Shown: in pieces, positions 19,016 to 52,081 of the stretch
Position numbering within the stretch: position 1 is the first letter of the stretch
Layout of the letters: each line of letters starts with the position of its first letter
Source of the DNA: Patescibacteria group bacterium
GTDB taxonomy: Bacteria; Patescibacteriota; Minisyncoccia; Phycocordibacterales; UBA9973
Assembly: GCA_040388575.1 (NCBI GenBank)
Contig: JAZKBO010000004.1
Span: 5,400 to 69,399, forward strand
DNA: 64,000 nucleotides
Direction: 5' to 3'
The notes under the pieces: generated by a model
The model's database searches: none
What the model saw: only the letters and a program-made list of their open reading frames with translations
Told to the model about the DNA's origin: nothing
Program-made: the position numbers and the translations under genes

Positions 19016-19107
19016 ATGGGTTTATCTCTAAAGAACCTTATCATATTAACAGAAATCTAATAAAAAACAACGCTAATTTGGATTAAAGAAATAAATTTTT
19101 TGAGTCG

Positions 19108-19136: not shown

Positions 19137-19175
19137 GAATAAGAACTATCAATTGTAGACAGAAGGGAGAACTGT

Positions 19176-19730: not shown

Positions 19731-19906
19731 AGAGTAGAAACAAACGGAACATCATCGCCTCGATCAAAAGAAGTCGCTTCGACTTCCGGTCGGGGCGATA
19801 TTCTTTTTATATAAGAAATTTCTGTATAGAAATTATGGAATTTTATCTCAAGTTCGAAGCCAGATTAGTTTTTGTAAATATTATATAGATTTGATATGAT
19901 TCATAT

Positions 19907-20185
19907 ATGAACAACGAAAGATTTAACTCATTGCGATCGCAACATATTAATACGCCAGAAAACATGACTGATGCTTTTAAAGCGTTGGAAGCAATAGTGA
20001 AGATAAAGAGTAGAGACAAATTTTACAATATTACTATTCCGGAATTAGATAGAATAGTAAAAGACAACCCCGATAAATTTCCTGGCGTCGCAGATGGTAC
20101 TGCGCTACTAAAAAAGCTTGCTCCCAATATCCGGGAGTTAAGAGCGAAGTTAAAATTACCCGAGAATATTGCCCGAGGATATTAA
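19907..20185 (+). CDS. hypothetical protein (AT-rich ORF between the two G+C-rich genes)
   Basis: 92-aa ORF MNNERFNSLRSQHINTPENMTDAFKALEAIVKIK... with no recognisable motifs. Confidence 0.35.
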   Translation: MNNERFNSLRSQHINTPENMTDAFKALEAIVKIKSRDKFYNITIPELDRIVKDNPDKFPGVADGTALLKKLAPNIRELRAKLKLPENIARGY

Positions 20186-20291
20186 AAAAACTTTACAATC
20201 AAGGCATTTTGGCTGGGAACTATTGACATTGACTTAATTTAATTACGTAGTAGGATAAACTCGAATTTCAGGTTCCTTTCAAGGAGGCTTT

Positions 20292-21092: not shown

Positions 21093-21108
21093 GAACAATG
21101 AAAAAAAA

Positions 21109-21148
21109 CCCGCGACGGAGCTTGCTCCTCGCGGGTTTCGTCGTTTTT
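21109..21148 (+). terminator. rho-independent terminator
   Basis: CCCGCGAcggagcttgctccTCGCGGG followed by TTTCGTCGTTTTT. Confidence 0.7.
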
Positions 21149-21441
21149 ATGTTATAATTACTGAGGTCGATTAATTGTTACTAATCTTAATTATTTATTT
21201 TATGTCTCTATCTTTAATGTCTATCGCAGAAATTGTTTTCTTCTTGGTTTTCGGTATCAGTAGTTTCTTTCCTTTTAAATACTCAAGGGAAATAGCCGCA
21301 ATCGCAGCTATCGTTATCGGTATCCTTTTATTGCTTGGTAAGTATTAGTAGCTTCATATAGTAAGTAGTAATTGTATTAAGACAAAGGTTTTTTGTCTTT
21401 TTGTTATATCTTTTTATAAGCGTTTCTAGTAGAATATAATA

Positions 21442-22553: not shown

Positions 22554-22848
22554 AGGGTAGGTGTTGGGTAATTACTCCGACCCAGGTCGGAGAGGAAAGT
22601 CCGAACACACAGCCTTTTAATAGGCAAACGTAGCGGGTAACGCCCGCCGGCAGCAATGCTCGAGGTGCGAACAGTGACGAACCGATTTAGTTCGGGTGAA
22701 ACGGCAAAATCCTTACGCGTGTGCAAGATCGTGCCCTAGCGCAAGTTGGGGAGAATCGCTTGAGCCTGTCAGTAATGGCTGGCCTAGATAAATTGTTACC
22801 GTCCACCGCAAGGTGAACCACAGAATTCGGCTTATAAACACCTACAAG
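22554..22848 (+). ncRNA. rnpB: RNase P RNA (bacterial type A, minimised)
   Basis: P1 pairing (GGGTAGGTGTT...AACACCTAC). P4 5' strand GAGAGGAAAGTCCGAAC and 3' strand ACAGAATTCGGCTTATAA, with compensatory CCGAA/TTCGG. GGGTAACGCCCGCC and GGGTGAAACGG elements. An upstream TTGCAA-N17-AATAAT promoter and a downstream terminator are present. Confidence 0.7.
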
Positions 22849-22856
22849 AAAATGAG

Positions 22857-31227: not shown

Positions 31228-31300
31228 TGCCGCCTTAGCTCAGTTGGTAGAGCAACGCTTTTGTAAAGCGTGGGTCCTCGGTTCAAGCCCGAGAGGCGGC
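31228..31300 (+). tRNA. tRNA-Thr (UGU)
   Basis: GCCGCCTTAGCTCAGTTGGTAGAGCAACGCTTTTGTAAAGCGTGGGTCCTCGGTTCAAGCCCGAGAGGCGGCT. Anticodon loop TTTGTAA. Confidence 0.85.
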
Positions 31301-31307
31301 TCCCGGA

Positions 31308-37358: not shown

Positions 37359-40300
37359 TTATTCCAACACCTCAGGAGTAACTTTATTTTTGAACCCAGT
37401 TCCTGCTGGAATGAGTCGGCCGATGATTACGTTCTCTTTTAGTCCACGAAGGGAATCTACGCCGCCCTTGATAGCATTTTCGATTAAGATACGGTTCGTA
37501 TTCTGGAAGGATGCTGCGGAGAGCCAACTCTTAGTTCGCAGTGATACTTCAGTAATACCTAGAACAACAATTTCAGCTTTGGCTTCCTTGCCACCTTCTT
37601 TAGTAATGCGAACATTTTCCTCAATAAAGGCAGTGTTTTCAACAATATCGCCGATAGAGAAGTTAGTTTCCCCAGCATCTTTGATCTTGCGGCGAGAGAA
37701 CATTTGGCGCACGATAATTTCCGTATGCTTTCTAGAGATAGAGGCACTTTGTAGTTCGTAAACTTTATTGATTTCGGTAATTATGTATTCCTCTACTTGT
37801 TCTTTGCCACCGAATTTAAATATCGCTGCGATGTCCGCTGATCCGTCTGTAAGTAGTTGGCCGGATTTCACTCTGTCCCCTGTTTTTATTATCGGCATTC
37901 TGCGGAAAGGCACCAGGTATTCAATCTCATTCGGCTTGCCATCGAGTTTGGTATCAGAGAGGACTTTAATTAACTTCTCTTTACCTTCTTTATCCTTTAT
38001 CTCAATTACTTCCCCATCACTCTCGGAAATGATAGCTGGATTTTTAGGAATTCGGCGTTCAAAGATTTCTTCAATACGAGGTAAACCAGTAGTGATGTCA
38101 GTACCTGCCACACCTCCAGCGTGGAAAGTTCGCAGCGTTAGCTGAGTTCCTGGCTCACCGATGGCTTGAGCGGCAATAATACCAACTGCTTCACCTTGCT
38201 TGACTATGTGGTTGCGTCCCAAGTCTAGTCCATAGCACATAACGCAAATGCCGTGTACTGTTTTACATGTTAGCGGTGAGCGGACGAATACTTCAGTGAA
38301 TCCGGCCTTTTCTATCGTAATTGCTTCTTCCTTAGTAATCAGGAAGCCTCTCTTGTAAGCCACCTTGCCATCTTTATCCTTCAGGTCGCCGGCCAATACT
38401 CGGCCACGAATATTCTTAGATAGTGGGATTTCAATACCAGAAATATTTTCTTTGGTAACTACTTTTCCTTCCTTAGTACCGCAATCTTCCTCCGTAACAA
38501 CTACATCCTGAGCTACATCCACGAGTCTGCGGGTTAGGTATCCAGCCTTAGCAGTGTTTAGCGCGGTGTCGGATGCTCCCTTACGTGCACCGTGCGTCGT
38601 AACGAAATATTCAATCGGTGAGAGCCCTTCTTGATATGAAGGTATGATTGGAAACTCTAGAGTCTTACCTTGGTTGTTTTGGATGAGTCCTTTCATTCCA
38701 CTCATTTGAGTAAGCTGACCCATAGAACCTCTGGCACCAGAAGTAAATATATCGTAAGTAGAACCATTCTTATCGAGTGACCCTGGCAATACTTTTTCCA
38801 AGTCTTTCTTGGCTTGAGTCCAAATTTCAATAATTTTCTGGTATCGCTCTTCTAGGGATAGAAGACCTTCTTTCCATTCAGATATTACTTGCTCCTCTAA
38901 TTTCCTGCCTTCAGCGATTATCTTCGGCTTCTCCACTGGCACGCTAACGTTATCCAAGCCCCAGGTAATACCAGAAATTGTGGAGTATTTGAATCCGAAC
39001 TCTTTTATCTTGTCCAGTATTGGCGGAGTTTGATCCACGCCATAGGAGAGAATTAATTCGTCAACTAAGGAAGACATTCTCTTCTGGGTCATCTCGTCAT
39101 TAACGTATGAGAAATCATTTGGCAAAATACTATTGAAAAGTAATTTACCAACAGAAGTATCGAATACTTTGCCTTCAAATTTCTTGTACTTAGGTGTATC
39201 AGTAGCTAGAACTTTTATCTTGGCTCGCAGAGAAACAACTCCGTAGTCGAAGGCAGTAATAGCAGTATTTGGATTAGGGAAGTATTTGCCTTCGCCTAAC
39301 TCATTATCTACAAACTTAGTCATCCAGAAAGATCCGAGCACAATGTCCTTACTTGGGTTCACGATTGGGTCACCATTTTGAGGCTTAAGTAGGTTCTTGT
39401 TGGAAGCCATTAATTCTTTGGCTTCTGCTTGAGCTTCTTCTAGAAGTGGTACGTACACAGCCATCTGGTCACCGTCGAAGTCTGCGTTAAAGGCGGCACA
39501 CACGAGTGGGTGCACTTGGATAGCATTACCTTCGATAAGTATTGGGTTGAAAGCCTGAATACCGAGGCGGTGCAGTGTCGGCGCGCGGTTTAGGAGCACA
39601 TACTTGCCTTCAATAACTTCTTCGAGCATGGCCCAAACTTCAGCAGTTCGCTCTTCGATGAGTTTATTGGCACCGCGAATATTGAACGCAAGTTCAGCTT
39701 GAAGAATTTTAGAAATGACGAATGGGCGGAAGAGTTCGAGCGCCATATGCTTTGGCAAACCACACTGATTTAATTTCAATTGCGGACCGACTACGATAAC
39801 GGAACGGCCGGAGTAGTCTACACGCTTACCGAGCAAGTTCTGACGGAAGAGACCTTGTTTTGATTTTAGATTGTCAGATAGGGATTTAAGCGGGCGCTTC
39901 TGGGATTGGCTCATAGCTGCAGAGTCATTTTGCTTAGCAATAGAGTTATCTATCAACGCATCTACTGCTTCCTGAATTATTCTTTTTTCATTTCGAAGAA
40001 TAACGTCAGGAGCATTAATTTCCTTAAGCTTTTTCAAGCGGTTATTGCGGTTGATCACGCGGCGGTATAGGTCGTTAAGGTCGCTTGTTGCATGACGGCC
40101 ACCATCGAGCGCCACCATAGGGCGGAGCACTGGTGGAATAACTGGAATAACTGTTAAGAACATCCACTCTGGACGGATAGAGGCATAAGTCATAGCGCGG
40201 ATAAGGGAGAGCCTCTTTTGTAACTTTTCCTTCTCCACTGCGCTGGCCTTTACTACCATTGCCTCAGTAAGAGTCTTTAGTTTATTTAAGTCTAGATTTT

Positions 40301-40967
40301 TAAATATGGAATATATTGCCTCCGCCCCAATGTTGGCTTCAAAGCAAGTTCCATATTTTAAGGAATAATGATGGAAAGAAATTTCATTGAGCACCTTACC
40401 CTCGTATATTTCACCGATTTCTTTTTTGGTAACTGAAAGTAAAGTCTTCAACTTCTCGCGAGTTTCCTCGTCTGGAATACTTTTAACCTTTGTCTTGTAC
40501 TCTTTATCCAGGCCGCTGATAAGAGTAGCTTTTTCTTCCTCATGCACCTTGGTAATGATGTAGCCGGCAAAGTAAATAACCTTCTCTAGGTCAGAGACAG
40601 AAATATTAAGGAGGATACTCATGCGGGATGGTACGCCACGTAGGAACCAGATGTGGGAAACTGGAGTAGAGAGCTCAATATGGCCCATGCGTTCACGACG
40701 AACGATAGAGCGGGTAACTTCCACGCCACACTTCTCGCAGATAATGTCCTTATACCTTATGCGGCGGTACTTTCCACAGTAACATTCATAATCCTTCTCC
40801 GGTCCGAAAATCTTCTCGTCGAAAAGGCCTCCACGCTCAGAGCGGCCAGTTCGATAATTTATCGTCTCAGGCTTGGTGACTTCCCCGTAGGACCATTCCT
40901 TGATCTGCTCCGGTGATGCGAGACGTAGTGTGATGTAATCAAATTCAGTTAAATTTAAAGTTTTCAT
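37359..40967 (-). CDS. rpoC: DNA-directed RNA polymerase subunit beta'
   Basis: [15 protein letters not shown], zinc-binding Cys N-terminus, 1202 aa. Confidence 0.9.
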
Positions 40968-40984
40968 ATAATTTTTTTGTTATT

Positions 40985-43900
40985 TTATTCCTCTAATTTC
41001 TCCTGAATTTCTTTCGGGGAGTATTTTTTAAGATTTACATCAAGTGCTAGACCTCTTAAGTAATTTAAGAGCACATTGAATGACGCTGGTGAGTTCGGGG
41101 AGCGAATCTTTTCATTCTTGATAATAGAGTCGAAGGTAGCAGAGCGGCCGAGGATATCGTCGGACTTGATGGTGAGCATTTCACGTAGTGTGTATGCAGC
41201 GCCGTAGCCTTCGAGTGCCCAGACTTCCATTTCTCCGAATCTCTGTCCGCCGCCTTGAGCTTTACCGCCGAGTGGCTGTTGGGTGATGAGCGAGTAGGGA
41301 CCAATGGAACGCATATGGATCTTGTCTTCCACCATATGGTGCAGCTTGAGCATATACATATATCCTACTGCTACGTCTTGCTGGAAAGCCTCGCCTGTGC
41401 GGCCGTCAAATAGCTTCATTTTGCCGCTCTCTGGCAATCCCGCTGCTTTTAATTCTGCCTTTATCTCTTCATGACGAGCTCCTAGGAATGGAGGCACAAT
41501 TGCCTGATAGCCTAAAGTGTTAGCAGCCATACCTAGGTGAATTTCTAGAATTTGACCCAAGTTCATACGTGATGGCACGCCGAGTGGTGAGAGGATGATA
41601 TCAACTGGAGTACCATCTTCCATGTATGGCATATCTTCCTCTGGTAGAACTGTTGAAATAACACCCTTGTTACCGTGGCGGCCCGAGAGCTTGTCTCCAA
41701 CTGAAATGTTTCGGATCTGGGCAACTTCGATAACAATTTTCTTGATGATGCCAGCTTCTAGTGTATGGCCAAGGTCGCGAGAGAAAATTTTAACTCCGAT
41801 TATGCGCCCACGCTTGCCGTGTTCCATACGCAGCGATGTGTCTTTAACATCACGAGCCTTTTCCGCAAAGATAGAGCGGAGCAATCTCTCCTCTGGAGTA
41901 AGTTCCGTCTCACCCTTTGGGGTAATTTTACCAACTAAAATATCATTTTCGCGAACTTCAGCTCCGATACGGACAATGCCGTCCTCATCTAGGTCCTTAA
42001 GTTTAAGCTCACCCACATTCGGGATATCGCGAGTAGTAATTTCCGGCCCAAGCTTAGTATCGCGAACAGTACAAATAAATTCCTCAACATATACAGATGT
42101 AAATTTACTTTTCTTTACTAGGCGTTCAGAAATAATTATAGCGTCTTCGTATGTTGAACCTGACCAAGAAAGGAAAGCAACTAGAATATTCTGCCCGATA
42201 GAAATCTGCCCACCTACAGTGCTCGAAGTGTCGGCAAGAACTCCACCCTTCTTTACCTTATCTCCTACTGATACTGCAGAGCGCTGGTGGAATACAGAGA
42301 AGTTGTTGTTGCGCAGGAAATTAACTAATGGATAAGTCTTTTCGCTCTTGCCTTTTACTACTACTTTCTTCGAATCTAAGTATGAAACTACTCCTTCCTC
42401 TTCGGCGAGGACAAGACGGCCACCATCGCGGGATGCTAACTCTTCAATACCAGTTGCAACTAGTGGCACTTCTGGTAGTACGCATGGTACTGCCTGCTTT
42501 TGCATGTTCGAGCCCATCAGCGCACGGTTAGCGTCGTTGTGTTCGAGGAATGGAATCATAGAAGTAGCAAGTGAGAATGCTTGGTTGGCAGCAACGTCAA
42601 TAAAGTCCACTGCTTCGCGAGCAATAGTTCCTGGCTCTGTTTTTACTCTCGCCTCAACTTTTTCTTCAGTGATTTTACCTGTTTCTTCGTCATACGGAAT
42701 ACCAGCGTGCGCAATGTTGTACTTTTCTTCATCGAGTGCATTGAGGTAAACCATCTCGCCAGTGATCTTACCATTCTTAACTTTGATATATGGGGTTTCG
42801 ATTATACCGAATTCATTTATTTTGGCATATGTTGAAAGGTGCACGATAAGACCGATGTTCGGACCTTCAGGAGTATGAATAGGACAAACGCGGCCGTAGT
42901 GGGATGGGTGCACGTCACGCACTTCGAGGCCCGCTCGCTCGCGAGTTAAGCCTCCTGGACCAAGAGCTGAAAGTAAGCGTAGGTGCTCCATTTCCGCAAG
43001 CACATTTTCCTGACTCATGAATTGAGAGAGCTGGTTGGTAGTGAAAAATTCTTTAATACGAGCCTGTAGTGGGCGCTGGTTAATGATCTGGATAGGCATC
43101 GCTGTCTGCACATCGATGATAGACATGCGGTCCTGAATGTTGCGCTTGATCTGCATCATACCGGTGCGGATCTTTTGCTGTAGAATTTCACCGACGAAGC
43201 GCACACGACGTTGACCGAGGTGGTCGATGTCGTCACTCTTTGCTCCCGGGGTATTGTTAAGAACAATAATATGGGTAATTACTGTGAGTAAATCTTCTTT
43301 GGAAATTGTGCGGCGAGCCATTTCAGCCTCATCCATACTCTTATTGAAGCGCTGATTGAAACGGAAACGTCCAACTGGGGAGAGGTCATAACGCTCAGAA
43401 GTAAATAATGAATTTATAAATTCTTTAGCATTTTCCGCAGTAGCCATGTCACCATCGCGTAGGCGCTTGTAGATTTCAATATAGGATTCACTTAAAGTTT
43501 TTACGCCATCCTTAGCTAGACATGCCTTAATAGCTTCCTCGGTTACTGGATTCTTAGCAAAAGCTTTAGTGATAGCTTCACTCGTCTCATAGCCCATTGC
43601 CCGTAGGAGTGCAGTAGCTGGGAACTTCCTCTTTTTGTCTATTCTTATGTAAATTGCGCCGTCAGCTTCAGACTCTATTTCAATCCAGACTCCGCGAGCT
43701 GGGATAATCTTGGCTCCGAAGTATGTTTTACCCTTACTCTCGCTTTGAGTGAAGAAAACACCGAAGCTTCTGGCAAGCTGCGGCACGATAACTCGCTCTA
43801 CGCCGTTGATGATGAAGGTTCCGTGTGGAGTCATTACTGGGAGGTCGGACATGAATATCTCTTGCTCCTTTACAGTGCCTAGGATTTTATTAGTGAGCTT

Positions 43901-44179
43901 CACGCGCACTTTCAGCGCTCCCTGGTAAGAGAGTTTATTTACTTTTGTATCATTCTCATCTGTCTTCGGCTCGCCGAGCGAGAAGGAAGAAAATTCCAAT
44001 TGGAACTTTTTACCGGAGTAGTCCGATATTGGTGAGAATTCTTTGAAAACTTCTTTGATCCCCTGTTCCACCAGCCACTTGTAGGATTTGAGTTGAGCTT
44101 CGATCAAATTTGGGAATTCGACCAACGGCTTCTTGTACCTACCAAAATACTTCTTCGGACGCTTGAGATCTGTTTGCAT
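40985..44179 (-). CDS. rpoB: DNA-directed RNA polymerase subunit beta
   Basis: Conserved RpoB blocks throughout (…GRHGNKGV…, …MRSIGPYSLITQQPLGGKAQ…). The ORF is open to 44221. The start is assigned to MQTDLKRPKK at 44179. Confidence 0.9.
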   Translation of the reverse strand: MQTDLKRPKKYFGRYKKPLVEFPNLIEAQLKSYKWLVEQGIKEVFKEFSPISDYSGKKFQLEFSSFSLGEPKTDENDTKVNKLSYQGALKVRVKLTNKILGTVKEQEIFMSDLPVMTPHGTFIINGVERVIVPQLARSFGVFFTQSESKGKTYFGAKIIPARGVWIEIESEADGAIYIRIDKKRKFPATALLRAMGYETSEAITKAFAKNPVTEEAIKACLAKDGVKTLSESYIEIYKRLRDGDMATAENAKEFINSLFTSERYDLSPVGRFRFNQRFNKSMDEAEMARRTISKEDLLTVITHIIVLNNTPGAKSDDIDHLGQRRVRFVGEILQQKIRTGMMQIKRNIQDRMSIIDVQTAMPIQIINQRPLQARIKEFFTTNQLSQFMSQENVLAEMEHLRLLSALGPGGLTRERAGLEVRDVHPSHYGRVCPIHTPEGPNIGLIVHLSTYAKINEFGIIETPYIKVKNGKITGEMVYLNALDEEKYNIAHAGIPYDEETGKITEEKVEARVKTEPGTIAREAVDFIDVAANQAFSLATSMIPFLEHNDANRALMGSNMQKQAVPCVLPEVPLVATGIEELASRDGGRLVLAEEEGVVSYLDSKKVVVKGKSEKTYPLVNFLRNNNFSVFHQRSAVSVGDKVKKGGVLADTSSTVGGQISIGQNILVAFLSWSGSTYEDAIIISERLVKKSKFTSVYVEEFICTVRDTKLGPEITTRDIPNVGELKLKDLDEDGIVRIGAEVRENDILVGKITPKGETELTPEERLLRSIFAEKARDVKDTSLRMEHGKRGRIIGVKIFSRDLGHTLEAGIIKKIVIEVAQIRNISVGDKLSGRHGNKGVISTVLPEEDMPYMEDGTPVDIILSPLGVPSRMNLGQILEIHLGMAANTLGYQAIVPPFLGARHEEIKAELKAAGLPESGKMKLFDGRTGEAFQQDVAVGYMYMLKLHHMVEDKIHMRSIGPYSLITQQPLGGKAQGGGQRFGEMEVWALEGYGAAYTLREMLTIKSDDILGRSATFDSIIKNEKIRSPNSPASFNVLLNYLRGLALDVNLKKYSPKEIQEKLEE

Positions 44180-44328
44180 AATAGTTTTCTCTCCCCGCTG
44201 TGCGGGGTAAGAAATAAACAAAACAAAAGAGAGAAAAGGCTTTTGCTTTACTTACTTCCTATAAATTAAAAAACGCCTTTTTTAAGGGCCTAATAATGGA
44301 GAAACGTCATTACTCAATCGGTATTACC

Positions 44329-44356
44329 AGTATACTCGGATTAGTTTTTTTGTCAA
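44329..44356 (-). promoter_or_regulatory. candidate rpoB promoter TTGACA-N16-TATACT
   Basis: The reverse strand reads TTGACAaaaaaactaatccgagTATACT, about 150 nt upstream of the rpoB start. A CCCCGCtgtGCGGGG hairpin lies in the leader. Confidence 0.35.
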
Positions 44357-44408
44357 ATGTGCATAAAAACACAAAGTCGAGCGCGACTCTGTGGTCGTAC
44401 TCGACTAC

Positions 44409-44729
44409 TTACTTGGACTCTCTCTTTTCTGCCTTCACGCATTCGTCCCGCAGTGTCAGGGCGATTCGAAAAACTGCGTGCGTGAGTTTGTCTTTCTCTG
44501 GGGCGATGAGGTCGGTCCGGTGAGTCGACACCCGAATCACTGCTGACAGTAGTGCTCGCATGTCATCTTCCGGAACTTCATCAAAAATAGAGTCGACTAT
44601 GGCTTTATGAAGAGCAAGGTAAAAGCTCACCAAATCGCCCAAACGCTGCTCCCCACATTCTCGCAGTTCAGCCTTCAACATCGATTCCATCGTTTTGACA
44701 GCTTCCTTATTAGGATAAACTGGCAACAT
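44409..44729 (-). CDS. G+C-rich hypothetical acidic protein (cassette B)
   Basis: SD GGAGG lies 6 nt before ATG (MLPVYPNKEAV...). Promoter TTGACA-N17-TAGGCT at 44750-44778. AGTCGcgctCGACT plus a T-run terminator sits downstream. G+C is clearly above the flanks. Confidence 0.5.
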   Translation of the reverse strand: MLPVYPNKEAVKTMESMLKAELRECGEQRLGDLVSFYLALHKAIVDSIFDEVPEDDMRALLSAVIRVSTHRTDLIAPEKDKLTHAVFRIALTLRDECVKAEKRESK

Positions 44730-44782
44730 GGGAACCTCCTCCATTTATTAGCCTACTATCTGTAAAGTTGTTGTCAAACTAT

Positions 44783-45430
44783 TTATTTCCTCTTCTTCCA
44801 CTCCTCTATCTTGGCGTGATTTCCAGAAAGCAAAACTTTAGGCACACGGTAGTTTTTACCCTTATGTTTAAGGATTTCAGGGCGAGTGTAAACTTCACTA
44901 GAGGAAACTCGTTCTTCTTCGAGCGATTCGTATTTACCCAGAACGCCAGGGATTTGGCGGGAAATGGAGTCGATCAGGATCATGGCTGGCAGCTCCCCGC
45001 CAGTTACTACATAGTCCCCTATGGAGTATTTCTTGGTCTTAAAAATTTTATCCACGCGTGCATCAATGCCTTCGTACCTGCCACAAATTAAAATAATATC
45101 TTTGTAATTTTTAGATAACTTTTTTGCTTCACCGGTGGTAAACTTTTCTGCAGTTGGAATAAAATTTATTACCAGAACTTTTCCCTTCGATTTACTCAGG
45201 GCCTTCGCCACTGCTGCGGCTACGGGCTCCGCCCTCATTACCATACCAGGCCCGCCGCCATAAGGCTTGTCGTCCACTGGCCTGTAATTATTCTTGGGTG
45301 CTTTAATGAAGTCCCGTGGATTATAAAATTTAATATCAATATGCTTATTCTTTATCGCCCGGCCAATAATAGACTCATTTAAATATGAGTCGAACATGTC
45401 CGGAAAAATTGTAATTATGTGAAAATTCAT
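44783..45430 (-). CDS. trmD: tRNA (guanine37-N1)-methyltransferase
   Basis: MNFHIITIFPDMFDSYLNESIIGRA... and GGELPAMILIDSISR (SPOUT knot). Confidence 0.85.
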   Translation of the reverse strand: MNFHIITIFPDMFDSYLNESIIGRAIKNKHIDIKFYNPRDFIKAPKNNYRPVDDKPYGGGPGMVMRAEPVAAAVAKALSKSKGKVLVINFIPTAEKFTTGEAKKLSKNYKDIILICGRYEGIDARVDKIFKTKKYSIGDYVVTGGELPAMILIDSISRQIPGVLGKYESLEEERVSSSEVYTRPEILKHKGKNYRVPKVLLSGNHAKIEEWKKRK

Positions 45431-45517
45431 TCTTGTTTTACTTTGTATTTATATCACAAATTCATTAAAAGTAGTGACGGCCGGCAACCTTCTGGTTGCC
45501 GGCCTGTTCACGATGCT

Positions 45518-45745
45518 TCAGCGTGCGTGCAGTCTGTAGTGGTAGATGCTGTTCCATTGGATGGCACGGAGCCCACGCGTCGCAGCCCAGCTATCGACTT
45601 GGGCTGGCAGTTCGCTGTCCGGCATTACACCGGCCTCGGCAAGAAACGCCTTGAGCTCCTCCACCATTTGGGGTTGCGGTCCCGCGTCGCCCAGGATTCG
45701 GATATCTCTATTGTGCATCCACACTTCGTAAAGAGCCTTCGTCAT
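45518..45745 (-). CDS. G+C-rich hypothetical protein, 75 aa (cassette C1)
   Basis: Promoter TTGACT-N16-CATAAT (45765-45792). SD GAGGGT, ATG at 45745 (MTKALYEVWMHNRD...). A GGCCGGCAACCttctGGTTGCCGGCC hairpin lies downstream. The ORF is open to 45796. Confidence 0.45.
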   Translation of the reverse strand: MTKALYEVWMHNRDIRILGDAGPQPQMVEELKAFLAEAGVMPDSELPAQVDSWAATRGLRAIQWNSIYHYRLHAR

Positions 45746-45764
45746 GTTAGGTACCCTCAATACT

Positions 45765-45792
45765 ATTATGTCACTTTTATATAAAAAGTCAA
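45765..45792 (-). promoter_or_regulatory. sigma70 promoter with extended -10 (TTGACT-N16-tgaCATAAT) driving cassette C1
   Basis: Part of a ~28-bp element, tcacttttatataaaaagtcaaacaaaa, that is repeated at 46321-46348. Confidence 0.5.
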
Positions 45793-45871
45793 ACAAAATT
45801 CTTTATTAAAATAGTTATGGCCGGCCTCATCTTTCGATAAGTCCGGCCACGTTGCTTGAGCCTTATGGCTC

Positions 45872-46264
45872 TTACTGCACGATTTGCACCGGCAGCTGGA
45901 TGTACGCTGGGAACTGATGAGTCGCGTCGTGCACTTCGACCCACCACTGATCCTTCTTCCACTTGCCGCCGACTTCCATGCCCACTTGTGCGGCCAGGCA
46001 GCCCATTGCTCCCCATTCCTCACCCTTGTCATTGAGCAATGAGTAGCGGTCCATATCGAGCGTGACCGCCCCGAGCTTGGCCGTCATCCGGCCATGCCGC
46101 TGGAGGTCGGGGTTCCTGGCAGGCGGGACCGGTCTTACCGGCACCTCCGTTACGGCGGGAGCGACAGTGGTCGAGCACGGCTTCCCTTTCATGAGGCCGA
46201 TGCCCAGACCCACCAAAGCCCCCACCATGAAAACGTTAAACAAGCCAATCCCTCTTCGAAACAT
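45872..46264 (-). CDS. G+C-rich hypothetical membrane-anchored protein, 130 aa (cassette C2)
   Basis: Promoter TTGACT-N16-TATAAT (46315-46342) with TGn. SD AGGAG lies 4 nt before ATG. N-terminal TM (GLFNVFMVGALVGLGIGL), then a Pro-rich linker. Long hairpin TGGCCGGACTTATCGaaaGATGAGGCCGGCCA plus a U-rich tract downstream. Confidence 0.5.
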   Translation of the reverse strand: MFRRGIGLFNVFMVGALVGLGIGLMKGKPCSTTVAPAVTEVPVRPVPPARNPDLQRHGRMTAKLGAVTLDMDRYSLLNDKGEEWGAMGCLAAQVGMEVGGKWKKDQWWVEVHDATHQFPAYIQLPVQIVQ

Positions 46265-46314
46265 ATTACTCCTGTCTGCGCATCCAAGCGCCTTAATCGA
46301 GATACTTACTACTA

Positions 46315-46342
46315 TATTATATCACTTTTGTATAAAAAGTCA
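46315..46342 (-). promoter_or_regulatory. near-consensus sigma70 promoter (TTGACT-N16-TGaTATAAT) driving cassette C2
   Basis: Second copy of the repeated promoter element. It lies directly downstream of the khpA terminator. Confidence 0.55.
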
Positions 46343-46368
46343 AACAAAAAACTCCGACCTGGGTCGGA
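46341..46368 (-). terminator. rho-independent terminator of khpA (bidirectional hairpin CTCCGACCtggGTCGGAG)
   Basis: On the minus strand the hairpin is followed by TTTTTTGTTT. On the plus strand it is followed by CTCTTTGTTTTTATATTTTT. Confidence 0.6.
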
Positions 46369-46396
46369 GCTCTTTGTTTTTATATTTTTCTAGAAA

Positions 46397-46801
46397 CTAA
46401 ATACCCTTAAGGTCCTCCATTGCTTCATCCACAGTTTTAAGTGAAGAAGGTGCTGCGCCTGGGGATCTCTCTCCTGGAGCTCGAGGTGGGATGTCACTGG
46501 TTGTGCCCATTCCCCCATCCATGCCTCGGTCGCCGCCATGGCCTCCGGTACCGCCTTCAGGCTCGTTAATCTTCAAGTTCACGCGAGCATTATTCTTCAT
46601 ACCTATGATGCGGAGCAATGTGCGGATAGCTTTAGCAGTGTTGCCCATGCGGCCGATGATTTTACCCATGTCTGCTGGGTTAACTGTCAGGGTTATAAGT
46701 ACGCCCATTTCGTCGACTGTCCTATCGATCTTTACATCATTTGGATTGTCAACGAGAGCCTTAACTACATATTCTAGAAATACTTTGTCTGCGTCTTGCA
46801 T
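46397..46801 (-). CDS. khpA: KH-domain RNA-binding protein KhpA (YlqC-like) with Gly/Pro-rich C-terminal tail
   Basis: KH core VNPADMGKIIGRMGNTAKAIRTLL. Lies downstream of rpsP, as in the canonical rpsP-khpA-rimM-trmD operon. Tail GGTGGHGGDRGMDGGMG... Confidence 0.7.
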   Translation of the reverse strand: MQDADKVFLEYVVKALVDNPNDVKIDRTVDEMGVLITLTVNPADMGKIIGRMGNTAKAIRTLLRIIGMKNNARVNLKINEPEGGTGGHGGDRGMDGGMGTTSDIPPRAPGERSPGAAPSSLKTVDEAMEDLKGI

Positions 46802-46900
46802 AATATCTTATCTATTTAAGCTTCTAAATTCTCTTACTGAGAGTGGCAGTATACGACGGACTGCTTATTTAATTATATCAAAATGAGAGTCTAAAGCAAA

Positions 46901-47209
46901 TTATTTTTTCGCTTTGAGTTCCTTTCTTTTTACAGTTGGCTTTTTCTTTGGAAGAACGTTTATTTTCTTACCTTCTATCGCCTTCTGGAGCACCAGGAAG
47001 TTGTGCATAGTTGGAGAGAGCTGGGCGCCCTTACTAATCCAGTGCTTCATCCTCTCGGTTTCAAATTTAGCCTCCCCTGCTTTCGGGTTATAAGTGCCTA
47101 GAATTTCTAAAAACCTGCCGCTCTTGGTGGAGTTCTTGGAGTCGGTTAAAACTGCCCTGAAGGAAGGGTCATTCTTGCGGCCTATTCGCTGTAAACGTAT
47201 TTTTAACAT
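46901..47209 (-). CDS. rpsP: 30S ribosomal protein S16
   Basis: MLKIRLQRIGRKNDPSFRAVLTDSKNS...GRFLEILGTYNP. Confidence 0.85.
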   Translation of the reverse strand: MLKIRLQRIGRKNDPSFRAVLTDSKNSTKSGRFLEILGTYNPKAGEAKFETERMKHWISKGAQLSPTMHNFLVLQKAIEGKKINVLPKKKPTVKRKELKAKK

Positions 47210-47249
47210 TGTTTGAGTCTAACATAGAAATTTAAAAAAGCAATATTCT

Positions 47250-49220
47250 GTGTTATATTTAAAGGTAATGTCGCAATCGAAGAAAAAAGGGGGCACAAAC
47301 CGCCTGGAAGGCACTATCTCCATCTCTGCCAAAGGCATAGGCTATGTGGCTGTAGGGGAAACTAAAAATAAAGGCCAGGATCCGGAAATAGATTCTAAGC
47401 ATTTAAACACTGCCCTTCATGGCGACAGGGTGGAGATTGTACTCCATCCTAAGAGCAAGAATCGCCAGACTGCGGAAGTTACCCGCGTAATAACCCGAGC
47501 CAAAACTGGCTTCATGGGCGTCATAGAGGAACAGAATGGCTTATTTTTTTTAAAGCCAGATGATCCTAAAATGTATACGGATATCATCGTTCCTCAAAGT
47601 ATGTTAAATGGCGCTAAGGCTGGGGAGAAAGTTTTCGTCAAAATCGTTTCTTGGAATGACCCTCGTAAAGAACCAGAAGGTAAAGTAGAAAAGGTCTTAG
47701 GTAAGCCAGGTGATAATAATGTCGAGATGGAGGCCATCGCGATGGAAAAAGGCTTCGCTGCAAGTTTACCTACAGATGTTGAAGCCGAAGCGGAAAGGAT
47801 AAAGCACGCGGGCATAAAAGAATCTGATTATCAAGATCGTCGGGATTTCCGCAACACTCTCACCTTCACTATCGACCCGGACACTGCTAAGGACTTCGAT
47901 GATGCAATATCATTCAAAGAAATAGATAAAGATAAATACGAGGTGGGTATTCATATAGCTGATGTATCACATTATGTGCAAATCGGCAGCGCAATAGATA
48001 AGGAGGCCAGGGAGCGCGGCACATCGGTATACCTCGTGGACCGTACCATCCCGATGTTGCCAGAAGTACTTTCTAATGACTTGTGCTCCTTGGTGCCGAA
48101 TCAAGATCGCCTGACCATGAGTGCTGTTTTTGTTATAGATAAAAATGCCAAGGTTGCTGGTGAATGGTTCGGCCGCACAGTTATCCATTCCCAAAGGCGC
48201 TTCACTTATGAAGAGGCCGAGGAATCGATAAAGAAATCCTCTGCACCACTACATAAGGAGCTTGCAATATTGAATGGTTTAGCAAAAAAGTTAACCAAGG
48301 AGAGGTTCAGTAAGGGCGCAATATCACTCGATCAAGAGGAAGTTAAGTTTGTCCTAGATGATAAAGGTGTGCCGATCAAAGTAATTAAAAAGGAGCGCGG
48401 CGACTCTAATAGATTGATCGAGGAATTTATGCTCTTGGCAAATAAAAAAGTTGCCCAAATTATTTCCTCATCTAATTCTAAGACCAAGGGTCAAAAAGAC
48501 CACAGTATTTCCATTTACCGCGTGCATGACCTGCCGAGTAAGGAAAAGATGGCAGATCTCGCTTTCTTCCTGCGCAGCCTCGGGCACAAAATAACATTAC
48601 GTGACGGGCTGATACCAACTTTTGAAATTAATAAGTTACTGGAGAGCTTGAAAGGTAAAAGTGAGGCCGACACCGTGCATCGCGCTGTCATCCGCTCCAT
48701 GGCCAAGGCAATTTACTCTACCAAAAATATCGGCCACTATGGCCTTGCATTTGAATACTATACTCACTTCACCTCCCCGATCCGCCGCTACCCAGACATC
48801 ATTGTGCATCGCCTACTTGAGGACCACCTAGAAGGTATTAAAATAAATCCCGATAAGCTCCATGTATTTGAAGACATGTCGAGGATTGCTTCCGAGCAAG
48901 AAAAGAGAGCCTCGGATGCGGAACGAGCATCGATTAAGTACAAACAAGTGGAGTACATGTCACTCCGGATCGGCAAAGCTTTCGATGGCGTCATCAGCGG
49001 CATAACCGAGTGGGGTATGTATGTGGAAGAGCTTGAAACAAAGTGTGAGGGTTTGGTGCGCGTGCGTGACATGGCGGATGATTACTATATATACAATGAA
49101 AAAAAGTTGGAATTAGTCGGCCAGAAGAAGAAAAAGCGCTACCGCCTCGGGGATCGTGTTAAAATAAAAGTTAAAGCGGTTGATTTGGAGCGCAAAACAA
49201 TTGATTATATTCTAGTATGA
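47250..49220 (+). CDS. rnr: ribonuclease R (RNB family 3'-5' exoribonuclease)
   Basis: Cold-shock/OB N-terminus. RNB catalytic DFDDAISF...HIADVSHYV. C-terminal S1 domain (GVISGITEWGMYVEL). Confidence 0.8.
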   Translation: MLYLKVMSQSKKKGGTNRLEGTISISAKGIGYVAVGETKNKGQDPEIDSKHLNTALHGDRVEIVLHPKSKNRQTAEVTRVITRAKTGFMGVIEEQNGLFFLKPDDPKMYTDIIVPQSMLNGAKAGEKVFVKIVSWNDPRKEPEGKVEKVLGKPGDNNVEMEAIAMEKGFAASLPTDVEAEAERIKHAGIKESDYQDRRDFRNTLTFTIDPDTAKDFDDAISFKEIDKDKYEVGIHIADVSHYVQIGSAIDKEARERGTSVYLVDRTIPMLPEVLSNDLCSLVPNQDRLTMSAVFVIDKNAKVAGEWFGRTVIHSQRRFTYEEAEESIKKSSAPLHKELAILNGLAKKLTKERFSKGAISLDQEEVKFVLDDKGVPIKVIKKERGDSNRLIEEFMLLANKKVAQIISSSNSKTKGQKDHSISIYRVHDLPSKEKMADLAFFLRSLGHKITLRDGLIPTFEINKLLESLKGKSEADTVHRAVIRSMAKAIYSTKNIGHYGLAFEYYTHFTSPIRRYPDIIVHRLLEDHLEGIKINPDKLHVFEDMSRIASEQEKRASDAERASIKYKQVEYMSLRIGKAFDGVISGITEWGMYVEELETKCEGLVRVRDMADDYYIYNEKKLELVGQKKKKRYRLGDRVKIKVKAVDLERKTIDYILV

Positions 49221-51118
49221 ATACGAAACAGGGAAAAATAAGATGGTTATTGCTTTTAACCCTGGCAATGGTGGCCTTTTTGGGCACGACTTCATATTAT
49301 TTAAAGAATCTTATATATAAAGAAGCGAACCAATTAGCGGATGTTTCCGCCGCCCCGGTTCTAGCCAGTACTGACACGGGGCCTAAATATTTCTATTTCA
49401 ATAAAGAAGCGGCACTACTCCCGAAGGTTTCTGCCACTGCATTCCTGGTGGGTGACCTTGATACGGGTGAAGTAATTATGGAGAAAAATCAAGACACCCA
49501 GCTTCCTATTGCTTCAGTCTCAAAATTGATGACGGCGTTAGTGGCCAATGAGCTGGGAGGAGAAAAAAATGAAGAGGGAGAGGCCCAAGTCAGTAAAAAA
49601 GCCTTGGCTACCTACGGTGGCAACGGTGCCTTCCACTTGGGAGAGAAAATTAAAGTCAACGAGCTTTTCTATCCGCTCCTCTTAGAATCCAGTAACGACG
49701 CCGCCGAGATCCTGGCGGAATATTTCGGACGCGATACTTTCCTTTCTAAAATGAATCAGGAAGCGCAAATCCTGCAGATGTCCTCCACCACCTATGATGA
49801 CCCGAGCGGCCTCTCCCCTAATAACAAGTCTACCGTATCGGACCTTTTTAAACTCGCAGGATTTTTAAGTAAACAAAAGCAAAACATATTGGACATCACT
49901 ACGAAACGTAGCTACACCAATGACAAACATAACTGGTCCAGCAACAACCAATTCCTGCGCGAGGCTGGTTATGAAGGTGGCAAAAGTGGCTTCACTGACC
50001 CTGCCAAACAAACTGTTATTTCGATCTTCTCTGTACCGCTGCCGCCAGGCGGTGAACGTAATATTGCCATCACCCTACTAGGAAGCAATGATAGACATAA
50101 GGATGTAGATAATATTGTCAGCTATCTAAAGAAAAATATATATTATGGTGGTGAAGCGGATGCTAACATCGCTTGGGTCAAACAAAAAGACGGCATCCCA
50201 GAAATTAAGGATCCGGACTTTGTTACCCTCTCCTTCGTCGGTGATATTATGGTGGACCGCGGGGTAAAAAATTCCGTGATGAATAACTTCGGCGGCGACT
50301 ACTCCGCATTATTTGATAAAATGGGAACCTTGAAAGATTCAGATGTGGTCTTTGCAAATTTGGAAGGCACCGCATCGGACAAGGGGGAAGATCAAGGAAA
50401 TTTGTATTCCTTCCAAATGGACCCGACGATTATACCAGCACTACGTGGTGCGGGAGTAAGCATCCTCTCTGTGGCTAACAATCACGTTGGCGACTTTGGA
50501 CGGGAGTCATACATTGATACACTTTCGCGCTTGCGGGAAAATGAAATTACTTATACTGGTGGCGGTATGAATAGTGAGGAAGCCGAGCAGCCAGCGGTAA
50601 TGGAAAAATATGGCATCAAGTTAGGATTTCTTGGCTTCTCGGACGTTGGCCCAGACTGGATGAATGCGAAGGAGGACACTGCTGGATTATTACTAGCTAG
50701 TAACCCACGCTTTGATCAAATAATTAAAAATGCTGCCAGCCAGGTGGATGACCTTATCGTCTCCTTCCACTGGGGTGTTGAATATCAAACGCAGCATAAT
50801 GCTAGGCAGGAAGAATTAGCGCACAAAGCCATAGATGATGGCGCAAAAATAATTATCGGCACCCACCCACATGTGATGGAAGATACTGAAACTTATAAGA
50901 ATGGTTACATCGCTTATTCACTTGGAAACTTTATATTTGACCAGATATTTAGTGCAGAAACTATGAAAGGCATGCTGCTTAACATTAAGCTCGGCCACGA
51001 TGGCAGCCTAGCAGTGACAAAAAATACTGTCAGGTTAAACGACGCCTTCCAGCCGGACACTGTAGTGGCTGGAAAGGAAGAAAAGATTAAGTTTGATAGT
51101 GTATTGATTCCAAATTAA
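49217..51118 (+). CDS. fusion protein: D-alanyl-D-alanine carboxypeptidase (S11, penicillin-binding) + CapA/PGA_cap metallophosphatase-fold domain
   Basis: N-terminal half has SxxK (ASVSKLM), SxN (SSNDAA) and KSG (KSGFTD). C-terminal half has LSFVGDIMVDRGV, ANNHVGDFG, FHWGVEY and GTHPHV, as in the CapA poly-gamma-glutamate family. Confidence 0.6.
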   Translation: MNTKQGKIRWLLLLTLAMVAFLGTTSYYLKNLIYKEANQLADVSAAPVLASTDTGPKYFYFNKEAALLPKVSATAFLVGDLDTGEVIMEKNQDTQLPIASVSKLMTALVANELGGEKNEEGEAQVSKKALATYGGNGAFHLGEKIKVNELFYPLLLESSNDAAEILAEYFGRDTFLSKMNQEAQILQMSSTTYDDPSGLSPNNKSTVSDLFKLAGFLSKQKQNILDITTKRSYTNDKHNWSSNNQFLREAGYEGGKSGFTDPAKQTVISIFSVPLPPGGERNIAITLLGSNDRHKDVDNIVSYLKKNIYYGGEADANIAWVKQKDGIPEIKDPDFVTLSFVGDIMVDRGVKNSVMNNFGGDYSALFDKMGTLKDSDVVFANLEGTASDKGEDQGNLYSFQMDPTIIPALRGAGVSILSVANNHVGDFGRESYIDTLSRLRENEITYTGGGMNSEEAEQPAVMEKYGIKLGFLGFSDVGPDWMNAKEDTAGLLLASNPRFDQIIKNAASQVDDLIVSFHWGVEYQTQHNARQEELAHKAIDDGAKIIIGTHPHVMEDTETYKNGYIAYSLGNFIFDQIFSAETMKGMLLNIKLGHDGSLAVTKNTVRLNDAFQPDTVVAGKEEKIKFDSVLIPN

Positions 51119-51131
51119 AAAGTGATATGCT
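51104..51131 (+). promoter_or_regulatory. sigma70 promoter TTGATT-N16-TGaTATGCT at the head of G+C-rich cassette D
   Basis: TTGATTccaaattaaaaagtgaTATGCT. It shares the aaaagtgaTAT spacer/extended -10 with the C1/C2 promoters. It overlaps the stop of the dac/capA gene. Confidence 0.45.
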
Positions 51132-51175
51132 CTAACTGAATACCTGCCACTCTAGTTCACCATCAAGGAGGTCCC

Positions 51176-51316
51176 TTGGCGAACGGACAGAATACCAAAC
51201 TCGTGCCCATGATCTTGTTCATCCTCGTAATCTTGGCGGTGCTCACTATCGTCGATAGTAAGAAGGTGACGACGCCTTACGGCTTCACCTTCCCCTGCCA
51301 GGGCTGCACGCACTAG
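51176..51316 (+). CDS. putative small membrane peptide (46 aa, TTG start) in G+C-rich cassette D
   Basis: SD AAGGAGG lies 4 nt before TTG. The peptide has one TM helix (MILFILVILAVLTIV) and a C-terminal CQGC. An alternative, minus-strand ORF 51152..51472 is considered less likely. Confidence 0.3.
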   Translation: MANGQNTKLVPMILFILVILAVLTIVDSKKVTTPYGFTFPCQGCTH

Positions 51317-51323
51317 GTGCACG

Positions 51324-51440
51324 ATGAAGGAAGAAGACAGCCTGTGGGCGTGGGCCAAACTGATTGGTCTACTGTTATTAGTTGAGGGCCTCCCGCTCGG
51401 TGCCCTCGCCTTCCTCATCCGGTGGAAGTTCGGAAAGTAA
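51324..51440 (+). CDS. putative small membrane peptide (38 aa) in cassette D
   Basis: MKEEDSLWAWAKLIGLLLLVEGLPLGALAFLIRWKFGK, with one TM helix and a weak SD. Confidence 0.25.
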   Translation: MKEEDSLWAWAKLIGLLLLVEGLPLGALAFLIRWKFGK

Positions 51441-51535
51441 CGCATGCCGGCGGCCCCTTGGGTCGCCGGCAAAATCGTTTGTGGGTGTATAATTAGTGAG
51501 TATGCTGTTCCTGGGCGCTTAAGACTGGAGGGTCT

Positions 51536-51997
51536 ATGAATCGTCTGGCTTTCGTAGTCGTCGTAGCGGTGGTGTTTCTTGCTGGCGTAGCAGCCGGCAA
51601 AGCAACTTCACCTGTCGAGAATGATCTCGCACTTCGCCAGGCAGAGAGTCGCGAGGCCATGCTGATGCTCGCCTTCGTTGAGCTCAAGGTGGAGAACATG
51701 GCGATGGAGGAGCAGCTCCAATCCTGGAAAGATGCCGCTGCTCCGCTTAACACCATGTATTTCACGGAGGCAGCCTACGTCGACATGGGTCTCCACGAAT
51801 ATTTCGAGAAGTTCTATCCGGACATGGTGATGAATGCAGTGAAGCTGCGCAAACTCACTCATCCATGTCAGGTTGACCCTCGACGTTGGGGTTGCTCCTG
51901 GTACGGAAAGAATTACGTACCGGTTTACGTGGAAATCCAGCGGCCATTCTCAATATCCATGAGCCTAGCTGGGCACATGGACTCCCCGAGGAAGTGA
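51536..51997 (+). CDS. G+C-rich secreted/membrane-anchored hypothetical protein, 153 aa (cassette D)
   Basis: SD GGAGGG lies 4 nt before ATG. Signal/TM segment MNRLAFVVVVAVVFLAGVAAG. Cys pair CQVDPRRWGC. A GCGGCCGG...CCGGCCGC hairpin lies downstream. Confidence 0.5.
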   Translation: MNRLAFVVVVAVVFLAGVAAGKATSPVENDLALRQAESREAMLMLAFVELKVENMAMEEQLQSWKDAAAPLNTMYFTEAAYVDMGLHEYFEKFYPDMVMNAVKLRKLTHPCQVDPRRWGCSWYGKNYVPVYVEIQRPFSISMSLAGHMDSPRK

Positions 51998-52081
51998 ATA
52001 AATTGAGTTTCGGGGGACATCCCCAGAACACGCGGCCGGCGATCTCTCGATCCCCGGCCGCAAACTCATTTAAATTAAAAT

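Follow-up and report, generated by a model that had tools for sequence, protein, structure and literature searches.

How did two G+C-rich genes come to lie between khpA and trmD in a streamlined genome, and did they displace another gene on the way? The question arises from a 64-kb stretch of DNA (hereafter the window; G+C content 42.9%) that belongs to a metagenome-assembled genome (MAG) of Paceibacterota/Patescibacteria, within the candidate phyla radiation (CPR). The minus strand of the window carries, in order, rpsP, khpA, the two open reading frames (ORFs) under study (ORF130 and ORF75), trmD, an uncharacterized 111-aa ORF, rpoB, and rpoC. Elsewhere, the canonical operon is rpsP-khpA-(ylqD)-rimM-trmD-rplS, and YlqD sits in this slot in Firmicutes. 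The initial annotation of the window interpreted ORF130 and ORF75 as mobile cassettes that replace rimM. The sequence-level statements of that annotation all hold, with small corrections, and nothing supports a replacement of rimM or an integron-like system. As far as can be judged from sequence comparison, the two ORFs are probably, although by no means certainly, horizontally acquired and independently transcribed accessory genes that occupy a recurrent variable spot without mobile-element genes and carry a locally duplicated promoter. The phenomenon is already known, from hotspots without mobile-element genes and from horizontal gene transfer (HGT) in Patescibacteria; the ORF130 and ORF75 proteins themselves are new.

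Accessory Genes in the khpA-trmD Interval

The junction is variable between relatives. Among about 44 patescibacterial loci with both khpA and trmD, the interval is empty (<130 bp) in about 32, and 12 have intervals of >250 bp. Relatives with an empty interval include loci L003/L004, L087/L088, L089, and L090, with TrmD 84–86% identical. The 47-bp spacer of L003 consists of a terminator hairpin and TGaTATAAT. L090 (ENA ERZ25039479 contig_43830) has the RNase R, rpoB, and PBP/PGA_cap genes each split into several ORFs, which looks like the result of long-read frameshift errors.

The interval ORFs of seven of the occupied loci were scanned against Pfam. The contents are NUDIX hydrolases (L021 and L037), a MazF/PemK toxin (L019), a HicA toxin (L039), a Cas2/PaaX-like protein (L015), and an IS200-like transposase with a UbiA prenyltransferase (L058); two other interval ORFs, in L014 and L053, have no Pfam match. 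The two closest relatives (JGI contigs; TrmD 88–90% identical) have a single interval ORF of 76 or 77 aa without a Pfam domain. The next interval, trmD-rpoB, varies too, with a 72-aa membrane protein in L003, a 79-aa unannotated ORF followed by a HicA gene in L090, no gene in L089, and the 111-aa ORFan in the window. By this comparison, the khpA-trmD interval is a recurrent accessory-gene spot, and it resembles a hotspot without mobile-element genes in that it separates two core genes and differs in accessory content among related genomes.

An exhaustive phmmer search of 1.84 billion representative sequences identified two relatives of ORF130, namely P0123 (164 aa; 40% identity; E 3e-16) and P0124 (136 aa; 32% identity; E 6e-4). 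Both occupy the khpA-trmD junction in two other Paceibacterota genomes (L005 and L006, respectively), so the idea of a random insertion fails for ORF130, all known homologs of which share its junction. The order in L005 is rpsP, khpA, a terminator, a TTGACT...TGaTATACT promoter, the 164-aa ORF, a hairpin, and trmD; in L006 it is the 136-aa ORF, a hairpin, and trmD. All three genes of the family are located directly upstream of trmD or, in the window, of the ORF75 unit that precedes trmD. No further members were found in IMG/VR and JGI metagenomes scanned with the alignment of the three proteins (A1), and a word-index search of 5.8 billion proteins returned only ORF130 itself. Judged from these searches, ORF130, P0123, and P0124 are a new and very rare protein family bound to one chromosomal position.

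Composition and Origin of the Two Genes

Compared with a native reference of 55 genes (G+C content at third codon positions, GC3: mean 0.411, standard deviation 0.063, maximum 0.53), both ORFs are outliers. ORF130 has a GC3 of 0.75 (z +5.4) and a synonymous-codon score of z -6.9; the corresponding values for ORF75 are 0.67 (z +4.1) and z -7.1. The compositional contrast that had been noted earlier is therefore real, and the codon usage of these ORFs is not native. The ORF130 homolog of L006 is also anomalous in its genome (GC3 0.64 vs. 0.38 for trmD), and that of L005 (GC3 0.73) is not, given GC3 values of 0.73, 0.63, and 0.60 for khpA, the RNase R gene, and rpsP of that locus. L005 has another G+C-rich ORF (positions 2668–3066; 132 aa; GC3 0.78; no family match) in the divergent intergenic region between the RNase R gene and rpsP, which measures about 40 bp in the window.

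Protein identities of TrmD and of the ORF130 family are mildly incongruent. TrmD of the window is 80% identical to that of L006 and 68% to that of L005, and ORF130 is 40% identical to its homolog in L005 and 32% to that in L006. Together, the GC3 match in L005, the anomalous GC3 in the window and in L006, this incongruence, and the empty intervals in nearer relatives favor horizontal movement among Paceibacterota of different G+C content over vertical inheritance and frequent loss, although a family of three sequences is too small to decide the matter.

The donors in most HGT detected in Patescibacteria are other Patescibacteria, a group in which genes for competence and pili are prevalent (PMC12455944). 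Many HGT hotspots lack mobile-element genes and are attributed to recombination at the core genes on either side, i.e., double homologous recombination (PMC5635113). A G+C-richer gene pool, most plausibly that of other Patescibacteria, may have supplied the genes for ORF130 and ORF75 by horizontal transfer. Their entry would probably have involved uptake of DNA, followed by double homologous recombination in the strongly conserved sequences on both sides. KhpA is 83–87% identical to KhpA of relatives, and TrmD homologs in Paceibacterota are 80–90% identical. The second unit may then have gained its promoter by a local 35-bp duplication.

Absence of rimM

Most CPR genomes lack RimM (PMC6744442), and the protein has been described as "nearly absent" in this group (PMC12641178). 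When species-representative genomes were searched with an alignment of TrmD, 80 loci were obtained, about 48 of them patescibacterial and 32 outside the main patescibacterial set. A RimM hidden Markov model (HMM), built from 28 ORFs directly upstream of trmD in non-CPR genomes, matched 29 of the latter 32 loci (Proteobacteria, Bacillota, Actinomycetota, Myxococcales, and Vicinamibacterales), always just upstream of trmD. The same model matched none of the about 48 patescibacterial loci and found no RimM-like ORF in the window, confirming that part of the initial annotation. The proposed replacement has to be abandoned, because RimM is lacking phylum-wide and khpA is followed directly by trmD in relatives with 84–86% identical TrmD. 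The empty junction in these close relatives indicates an ancestral state without rimM; rimM was never present at this spot in this clade, and the ancestral arrangement is khpA, a terminator, a -10 element, and trmD. The window still carries the TGaTATAAA of trmD beside that gene. The missing rimM is a known phylum-wide CPR trait rather than a local replacement, and a tempting misreading is hereby corrected.

The position of ORF130 between khpA and trmD, together with a C-terminal domain that is predicted with low confidence to be all-beta, might suggest a divergent functional substitute for RimM or for YlqD. This notion is close to refuted. The hhalign comparison of alignment A1 with a nine-sequence RimM alignment gave a probability of 0.3%, ORF130 has no Pfam match at E ≤ 1 in a library that includes the RimM, PRC, and YlqD models, and its N-terminal anchor would place the domain outside the cytoplasm. 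Moreover, ORF130 has its own predicted promoter and likely terminator and is absent from most relatives. A RimM or YlqD substitute was rejected on the Pfam, RimM HMM, and hhalign results.

Duplicated Promoter and Hairpins

The initial annotation described an almost identical element of about 28 bp before each ORF. The duplication is real and the length required correction, as the direct repeat spans 35 nt with 33 identical positions (94%; pattern TTGACT-N16-TGn(T/C)ATAAT), including 15 of the 16 spacer positions (Table 1). When both copies are aligned, the identity begins 6 nt before the -35 element and stops 1 nt past the -10 element, with unrelated sequence on either side; the duplicated segment is therefore exactly a core promoter. 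A consensus scan of the minus strand agrees with the predicted near-perfect extended -10 sigma70 promoters, with scores of 11/12 for copy 1 and 10/12 for copy 2, both with the TG extension. Among near-consensus sites that are fully intergenic in the window, only the rpoB promoter and one unassigned site near position 1303 score equally. A search of the window for further copies of the 28-mer (≤3 mismatches) returned two occurrences, one upstream of each ORF, compared with none in 100 shuffles.

The extended -10 element of trmD is a weak third partial copy (71–75% over 24 nt), and its counterpart is the TGaTATAAT before trmD in L003. This resemblance is explained by a common extended -10 element and an A+T-rich spacer. 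The degenerate promoter pattern has six matches in JGI metagenomes, all in unrelated contigs of 26–52% G+C and one with an identical 28-mer. Six matches are about the number that chance and promoter selection would produce, and their occurrence in unrelated contigs implies that the 35-nt sequence is close to a generic optimal promoter. The resemblance between the promoters of L005 and the window may be convergent. The 33/35 identity within one locus is still best explained by local duplication. The repeats would also permit loss of the 551-bp ORF130 unit via recombination between the two copies. In a Hainich groundwater contig (L092, positions 838–1100; 52% G+C over the whole contig), the nearly identical consensus promoter TTGACTTTTTATACAAAAGGTGATATACT precedes a G+C-rich ORF that starts with MNKIIGIVVVLVAFMAGIAQAQQ (signal peptide).

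For the 3' ends of the units, the description of a GGCCGG-rich hairpin and a U-tract after each ORF was partly upheld: the hairpins are strong, and neither has a canonical U-tract (four U in each, offset by 5–7 nt). Among the three hairpins of the locus, only that of khpA has a canonical U-tract and a terminator call, which was obtained on both strands in accordance with the bidirectional terminator proposed earlier. Its U-tract overlaps into the -35 element of the ORF130 promoter. The hairpin after ORF130 was not called by the terminator scan, and those after ORF130 and ORF75 are likely, but less certain, terminators.

Table 1. Positions of the features discussed, in coordinates of the 64-kb window.
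Feature	Position	Strand	Sequence characteristics	Remarks
rpsP (ribosomal protein S16)	46901–47209	-	Pfam Ribosomal_S16, E 1.5e-16	Conserved flanking core gene
khpA (KH-domain protein)	46397–46801	-	Pfam KH_KhpA-B, E 9e-21	Upstream border of variable interval
khpA intrinsic terminator, bidirectional	46342–46379	both	CTCCGACC-cagg-GGTCGGAG with A- and U-tracts	-24.9 kcal/mol, z -6.7
Promoter repeat, copy 1 (ORF130)	46315–46349	-	-35 TTGACT 46338–46343, 16-nt spacer, TG-extended -10 TATAAT 46316–46321	
ORF130 5' leader, about 45 nt	46265–46314	-	Shine-Dalgarno AGGAG 46269–46273, 4 nt before ATG	
ORF130	45872–46264	-	Predicted N-terminal membrane anchor, Pro-rich linker, conserved C-terminal domain of about 70 aa (RYS..EWxxMxC..G..G..W..HDxxH)	
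Hairpin after ORF130	45817–45850	-	GGCCGG-rich stem, weak displaced U-tract	-32.4 kcal/mol, z -7.4
Promoter repeat, copy 2 (ORF75)	45764–45798	-	-35 TTGACT 45787–45792, 16-nt spacer, TG-extended -10 CATAAT 45765–45770	
ORF75	45518–45745	-	75-aa ORFan, soluble; GAGGG 45754–45758, 8 nt before ATG	Leader only about 13 nt
Hairpin after ORF75	45474–45511	-	GGCCGGCAACC/GGTTGCCGGCC, weak U-tract	-28.6 kcal/mol, z -5.4
trmD extended -10 element	45448–45456	-	TGaTATAAA (hexamer 45448–45453; partial repeat 45448–45472)	Repeat family D2
trmD	44783–45430	-	Pfam tRNA_m1G_MT, E 1e-40	Core gene, downstream border of variable interval
G+C-rich unit	19100–19810 (ORF 19176–19730)	+	184 aa, GC3 0.63, z +3.4	TTGACA-type promoter-like site, 3' hairpin
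G+C-rich unit	20220–21150 (ORF 20292–21092)	+	266-aa signal-peptide protein, GC3 0.66, z +4.0	No family match
G+C-rich block	51119–52081 (unit 51165–51997)		Two transmembrane peptides of about 47 and 38 aa (51165–51460) and a 153-aa protein	Between PBP/PGA_cap gene and smc

Predicted Products of ORF130 and ORF75

ORF130 had been described as a 130-aa membrane-anchored protein with a Pro-rich linker, and both the hydrophobic segment (residues 6–24; 19-residue Kyte-Doolittle mean 2.14) and the linker were recovered in the present analysis. According to alignment A1, the three family members have in common an N-terminal hydrophobic segment, a variable linker, and a C-terminal core of about 70 aa in which RYS, EW, M, C, W, HD, and H are invariant. 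The conservation of this core in three proteins shows ORF130 to be a genuine protein under constraint and makes the 130-aa start a better choice than the 71-aa call at NCBI. Structure in the 5' leader of ORF130 is not significant (z -0.8). The AlphaFold2 (AF2) model has a pLDDT of 51 with an all-beta C-terminal domain and is too poor for a fold search. The N-terminal segment of the family is predicted to be a membrane anchor or signal peptide, in which case ORF130 would be displayed on the cell surface. The strong predicted promoters and the anchor suggest abundantly expressed small proteins, and it is a matter of speculation that the conserved Cys/His/Asp/His residues of ORF130 might bind metal.

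ORF75 has no hydrophobic segment and matched only itself among 5.8 billion proteins. Its AF2 single-sequence model has a beta-beta-alpha-alpha-beta arrangement (pLDDT 64), and the best Foldseek match in the Protein Data Bank (PDB) is not significant (E 0.78). Neither ORF has a match in PHROG, PADLOC, or NCBIfam, in a PDB sequence profile search, in tblastn against phages, or in blastn against plasmids, and Pfam gave none at E ≤ 1 except for a sub-threshold TcpQ. A toxin-antitoxin or defense identity likewise found no match in Pfam, PADLOC, NCBIfam, or PHROG, and a hairpin and a promoter lie between the two genes, which do not form a bicistronic pair.

Alternative Explanations

Several points weigh against horizontal acquisition of two accessory genes as set out above. 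A sliding-window identity scan against five relatives revealed no clear recombination tract in rpsP-khpA, and the analysis turned up no donor sequence. A family that keeps its position at 32–40% identity might just as well be an old one that was passed on vertically and lost repeatedly; under such ancestry, the high G+C content of the family would need another explanation. The coding status of ORF75, which lacks a homolog, is indicated solely by its expression signals, and its antisense frame shows the same GC periodicity. The structure models are of low confidence (pLDDT 51 and 64), and the search for further promoter copies covered 64 kb of the genome. Under vertical inheritance, ORF130 and ORF75 would be native and lineage-specific; selection or biased gene conversion would maintain their high G+C content, and an empty interval in a relative would reflect loss. 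The constant position of the ORF130 family in three genomes and the high G+C content of all three copies (GC3 0.64–0.75) fit this history. Nevertheless, at least five nearer relatives have an empty interval, which calls for several independent losses; pairwise distances within the family conflict with those of TrmD; ORF75 has no relative at all; and codon usage at z of about -7 would be hard to keep over that divergence. Vertical inheritance is therefore considered unlikely. An assembly chimera, to which the sharp composition change at the unit borders might point, can be dismissed almost entirely. The same arrangement is present in independent assemblies, namely Logan SRR26324622, GCA_040384165.1, and a 118,930-bp NCBI MAG contig (although these may stem from one sample), a homologous arrangement is present in two other samples, and the unit borders coincide with functional signals.

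Apart from the question of origin, ORF75 may not be a protein gene but a small RNA or an ORF that arose by chance in G+C-rich DNA. It has no homolog, a 75-codon open frame at about 58% G+C is not rare by chance (an estimated 9% or so per frame), and the antisense frame is open too (121 aa) with the same periodicity. This explanation is improbable, since a single strand carries, in register, the promoter, the GAGGG, the stop codon, and a hairpin that follows after 7 nt, the sequence matches no Rfam family, and the AF2 model predicts a compact fold. Less probable still in our estimation is a dedicated mobile-cassette system, in which the 35-nt promoter would also serve as a recombination site, and site-specific or short-homology recombination would stack promoter-carrying cassettes in an integron-like manner. 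ORF130 with its hairpin is indeed bracketed exactly by the 33/35 direct repeat as a 551-bp unit, a weak third copy of the repeat (family D2) precedes trmD, and the window contains several G+C-rich single-gene units. However, there is no integrase, transposase, or recombinase among the genes of 37359–54223, and no attC core site (GTTRRRY) on the cassette strand in 45400–46420, where the two RYYYAAC matches are located before the ORF75 ATG and inside ORF130 rather than at hairpins. This also accords with the earlier remark that no recombinase sites are visible. The 35-nt element occurs only twice in 64 kb and not at the borders of the other G+C-rich units, which have no common boundary motif of ≥13 nt. 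The third copy is no better than a common -10 element with an A+T-rich spacer, and the presence of the promoter pattern in unrelated metagenome contigs again points to a near-generic promoter. Thus, the earlier proposal of mobile-cassette insertion stands for the autonomous promoter-ORF-hairpin units, the duplicated promoter, the foreign composition, and the variable junction, and its analogy to integrons or integrative and conjugative elements does not: the integron reading was rejected for want of attC core sites and an integrase in 37359–54223 and because each ORF has its own promoter. A more far-reaching version, which we regard as a long shot, is that the 35-bp promoter module could be a joint for adding or removing promoter-carrying single-gene cassettes, by short homology or a trans-acting recombinase, and that Paceibacterota could share a pool of G+C-rich, highly expressed surface-protein cassettes that are shuffled into terminator-promoter junctions of core clusters. 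If true, ultra-small episymbionts would possess a "promoter-in" counterpart of integrons that works without an integrase.

Flanking Genes and Other G+C-Rich Units

The same locus is available in two further assemblies of this organism, one (L001) 100% identical and the other (L002) identical except for scaffold gaps. L001 and L002 represent one genome and differ by scaffold gaps, and hence provide no strain-variation data. The ORF130 and TrmD proteins are identical to NCBI entries on the 118,930-bp MAG contig, where both ORFs are annotated. As had been stated, rpsP, khpA, and trmD are present and co-directional, with Pfam matches for all three on the minus strand. All genes in 37359–54223 can be accounted for, namely rpoC, rpoB, the 111-aa ORF, trmD, ORF130, ORF75, khpA, rpsP, the RNase R gene, a PBP/PGA_cap fusion, a G+C-rich unit, and the SMC gene; rpoC was assigned by synteny with L003.

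The 3' half of khpA (46397–46600) encodes a Gly/Pro-rich, G+C-rich C-terminal extension of about 55 aa that ends in a conserved LKTVDEAMEDLKGI motif. The length and sequence of this extension differ among relatives (proteins of 114–134 aa), and the terminal LKTVDEAMEDLKGI motif is retained. Downstream of trmD, the clade of the window has rpoB-rpoC and not rplS (44221–44783 in the window; L003, L087, and L089). The 111-aa ORFan between trmD and rpoB (44409–44744, minus strand) has deviant codon usage (z -5.2) and a GC3 of 0.54, and rpoB has its own promoter with an 11/12 consensus score (44329–44356) just past a terminator (44370–44393). The only Rfam matches in the window are an RNase P RNA and three tRNAs, all outside the ORF130/ORF75 locus. 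The RNase P RNA is of class A (22556–22850, plus strand; 122 bits) and apparently of a reduced form, with 295 nt matched of the 367-position model; the tRNA genes are located at 18848–18920 (minus), 18944–19015 (minus), and 31229–31301 (plus).

Three further G+C-rich units are present in the window (Table 1). The 184-aa protein of the first has an N-terminal hydrophobic or lipoprotein-like signal and an HExxH motif, with weak matches to Peptidase_M48 (E 1.6e-7) and the Lit phage-exclusion protease (PADLOC E 7e-6). An A+T-rich 92-aa ORF (19907–20185) separates this unit from the second, the ORF of which has TTGACA..TAGGAT upstream and a canonical terminator downstream. The third is a block in which each gene is followed by a GCCGGC-rich hairpin, and its 153-aa protein (51536–51997; GC3 0.63) has a hydrophobic N terminus. 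Since the PBP/PGA_cap-smc junction measures only 68 bp in L003, this block also appears to be a lineage-specific insertion. At least four other G+C-rich ORFs in these three units encode signal-peptide or transmembrane proteins. If they are surface proteins for host attachment, the products of those G+C-rich ORFs would be candidate host-range determinants.

Comparison With Known Systems

None of these observations would surprise a specialist. The locus is nonetheless a clean and well-delimited case of a streamlined episymbiont genome gaining strain-specific genes, in which self-sufficient units of foreign composition and less than a kilobase in length appear to have entered the terminator-promoter gaps that separate highly conserved genes, and no machinery of mobile elements lies nearby. 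Relative to the canonical operon, the order rpsP-khpA...trmD is kept in the window, whereas the phylum as a whole lacks rimM, trmD precedes rpoB instead of rplS in this clade, and khpA and trmD carry terminator and promoter signals of their own. The resemblance to integron cassettes lies in single-ORF units stacked head to tail in one orientation. Integron cassettes are, however, promoterless, end in attC, and depend on intI, attI, and Pc, whereas the units of the window have their own strong predicted promoters (10–11/12 consensus, TG-extended), no attC, and no integrase. Type II toxin-antitoxin and other selfish modules of other Patescibacteria (MazF in L019, HicA in L039, and, next to trmD in L090, HicA with a neighboring unannotated ORF) share with ORF130 and ORF75 the slot, the small gene size, and the patchy distribution. 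Nevertheless, ORF130 and ORF75 match no such family and are separate transcription units instead of a bicistronic pair.

Closer parallels are provided by HGT genes and islands of groundwater Patescibacteria (PMC12455944), which are also compositionally deviant accessory genes in streamlined CPR genomes with mostly patescibacterial donors. Those islands consist of multi-gene metabolic or restriction-modification functions, whereas the units described here are sub-kilobase, single-gene, and ORFan. With the hotspots without mobile-element genes (Oliveira et al., 2017; PMC5635113), there are differences in scale and setting, as the turnover here is across species and genera rather than within a species pangenome, no flank recombination was detected, and the spot lies inside a ribosome-related gene cluster. 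The khpA-trmD interval nonetheless resembles those hotspots in being a short interval between core genes, with differing accessory genes and no integrase, transposase, or tRNA gene. As in those hotspots, genes could plausibly enter by double homologous recombination in the flanks, the lineage being rich in competence and pilus genes (PMC12455944).

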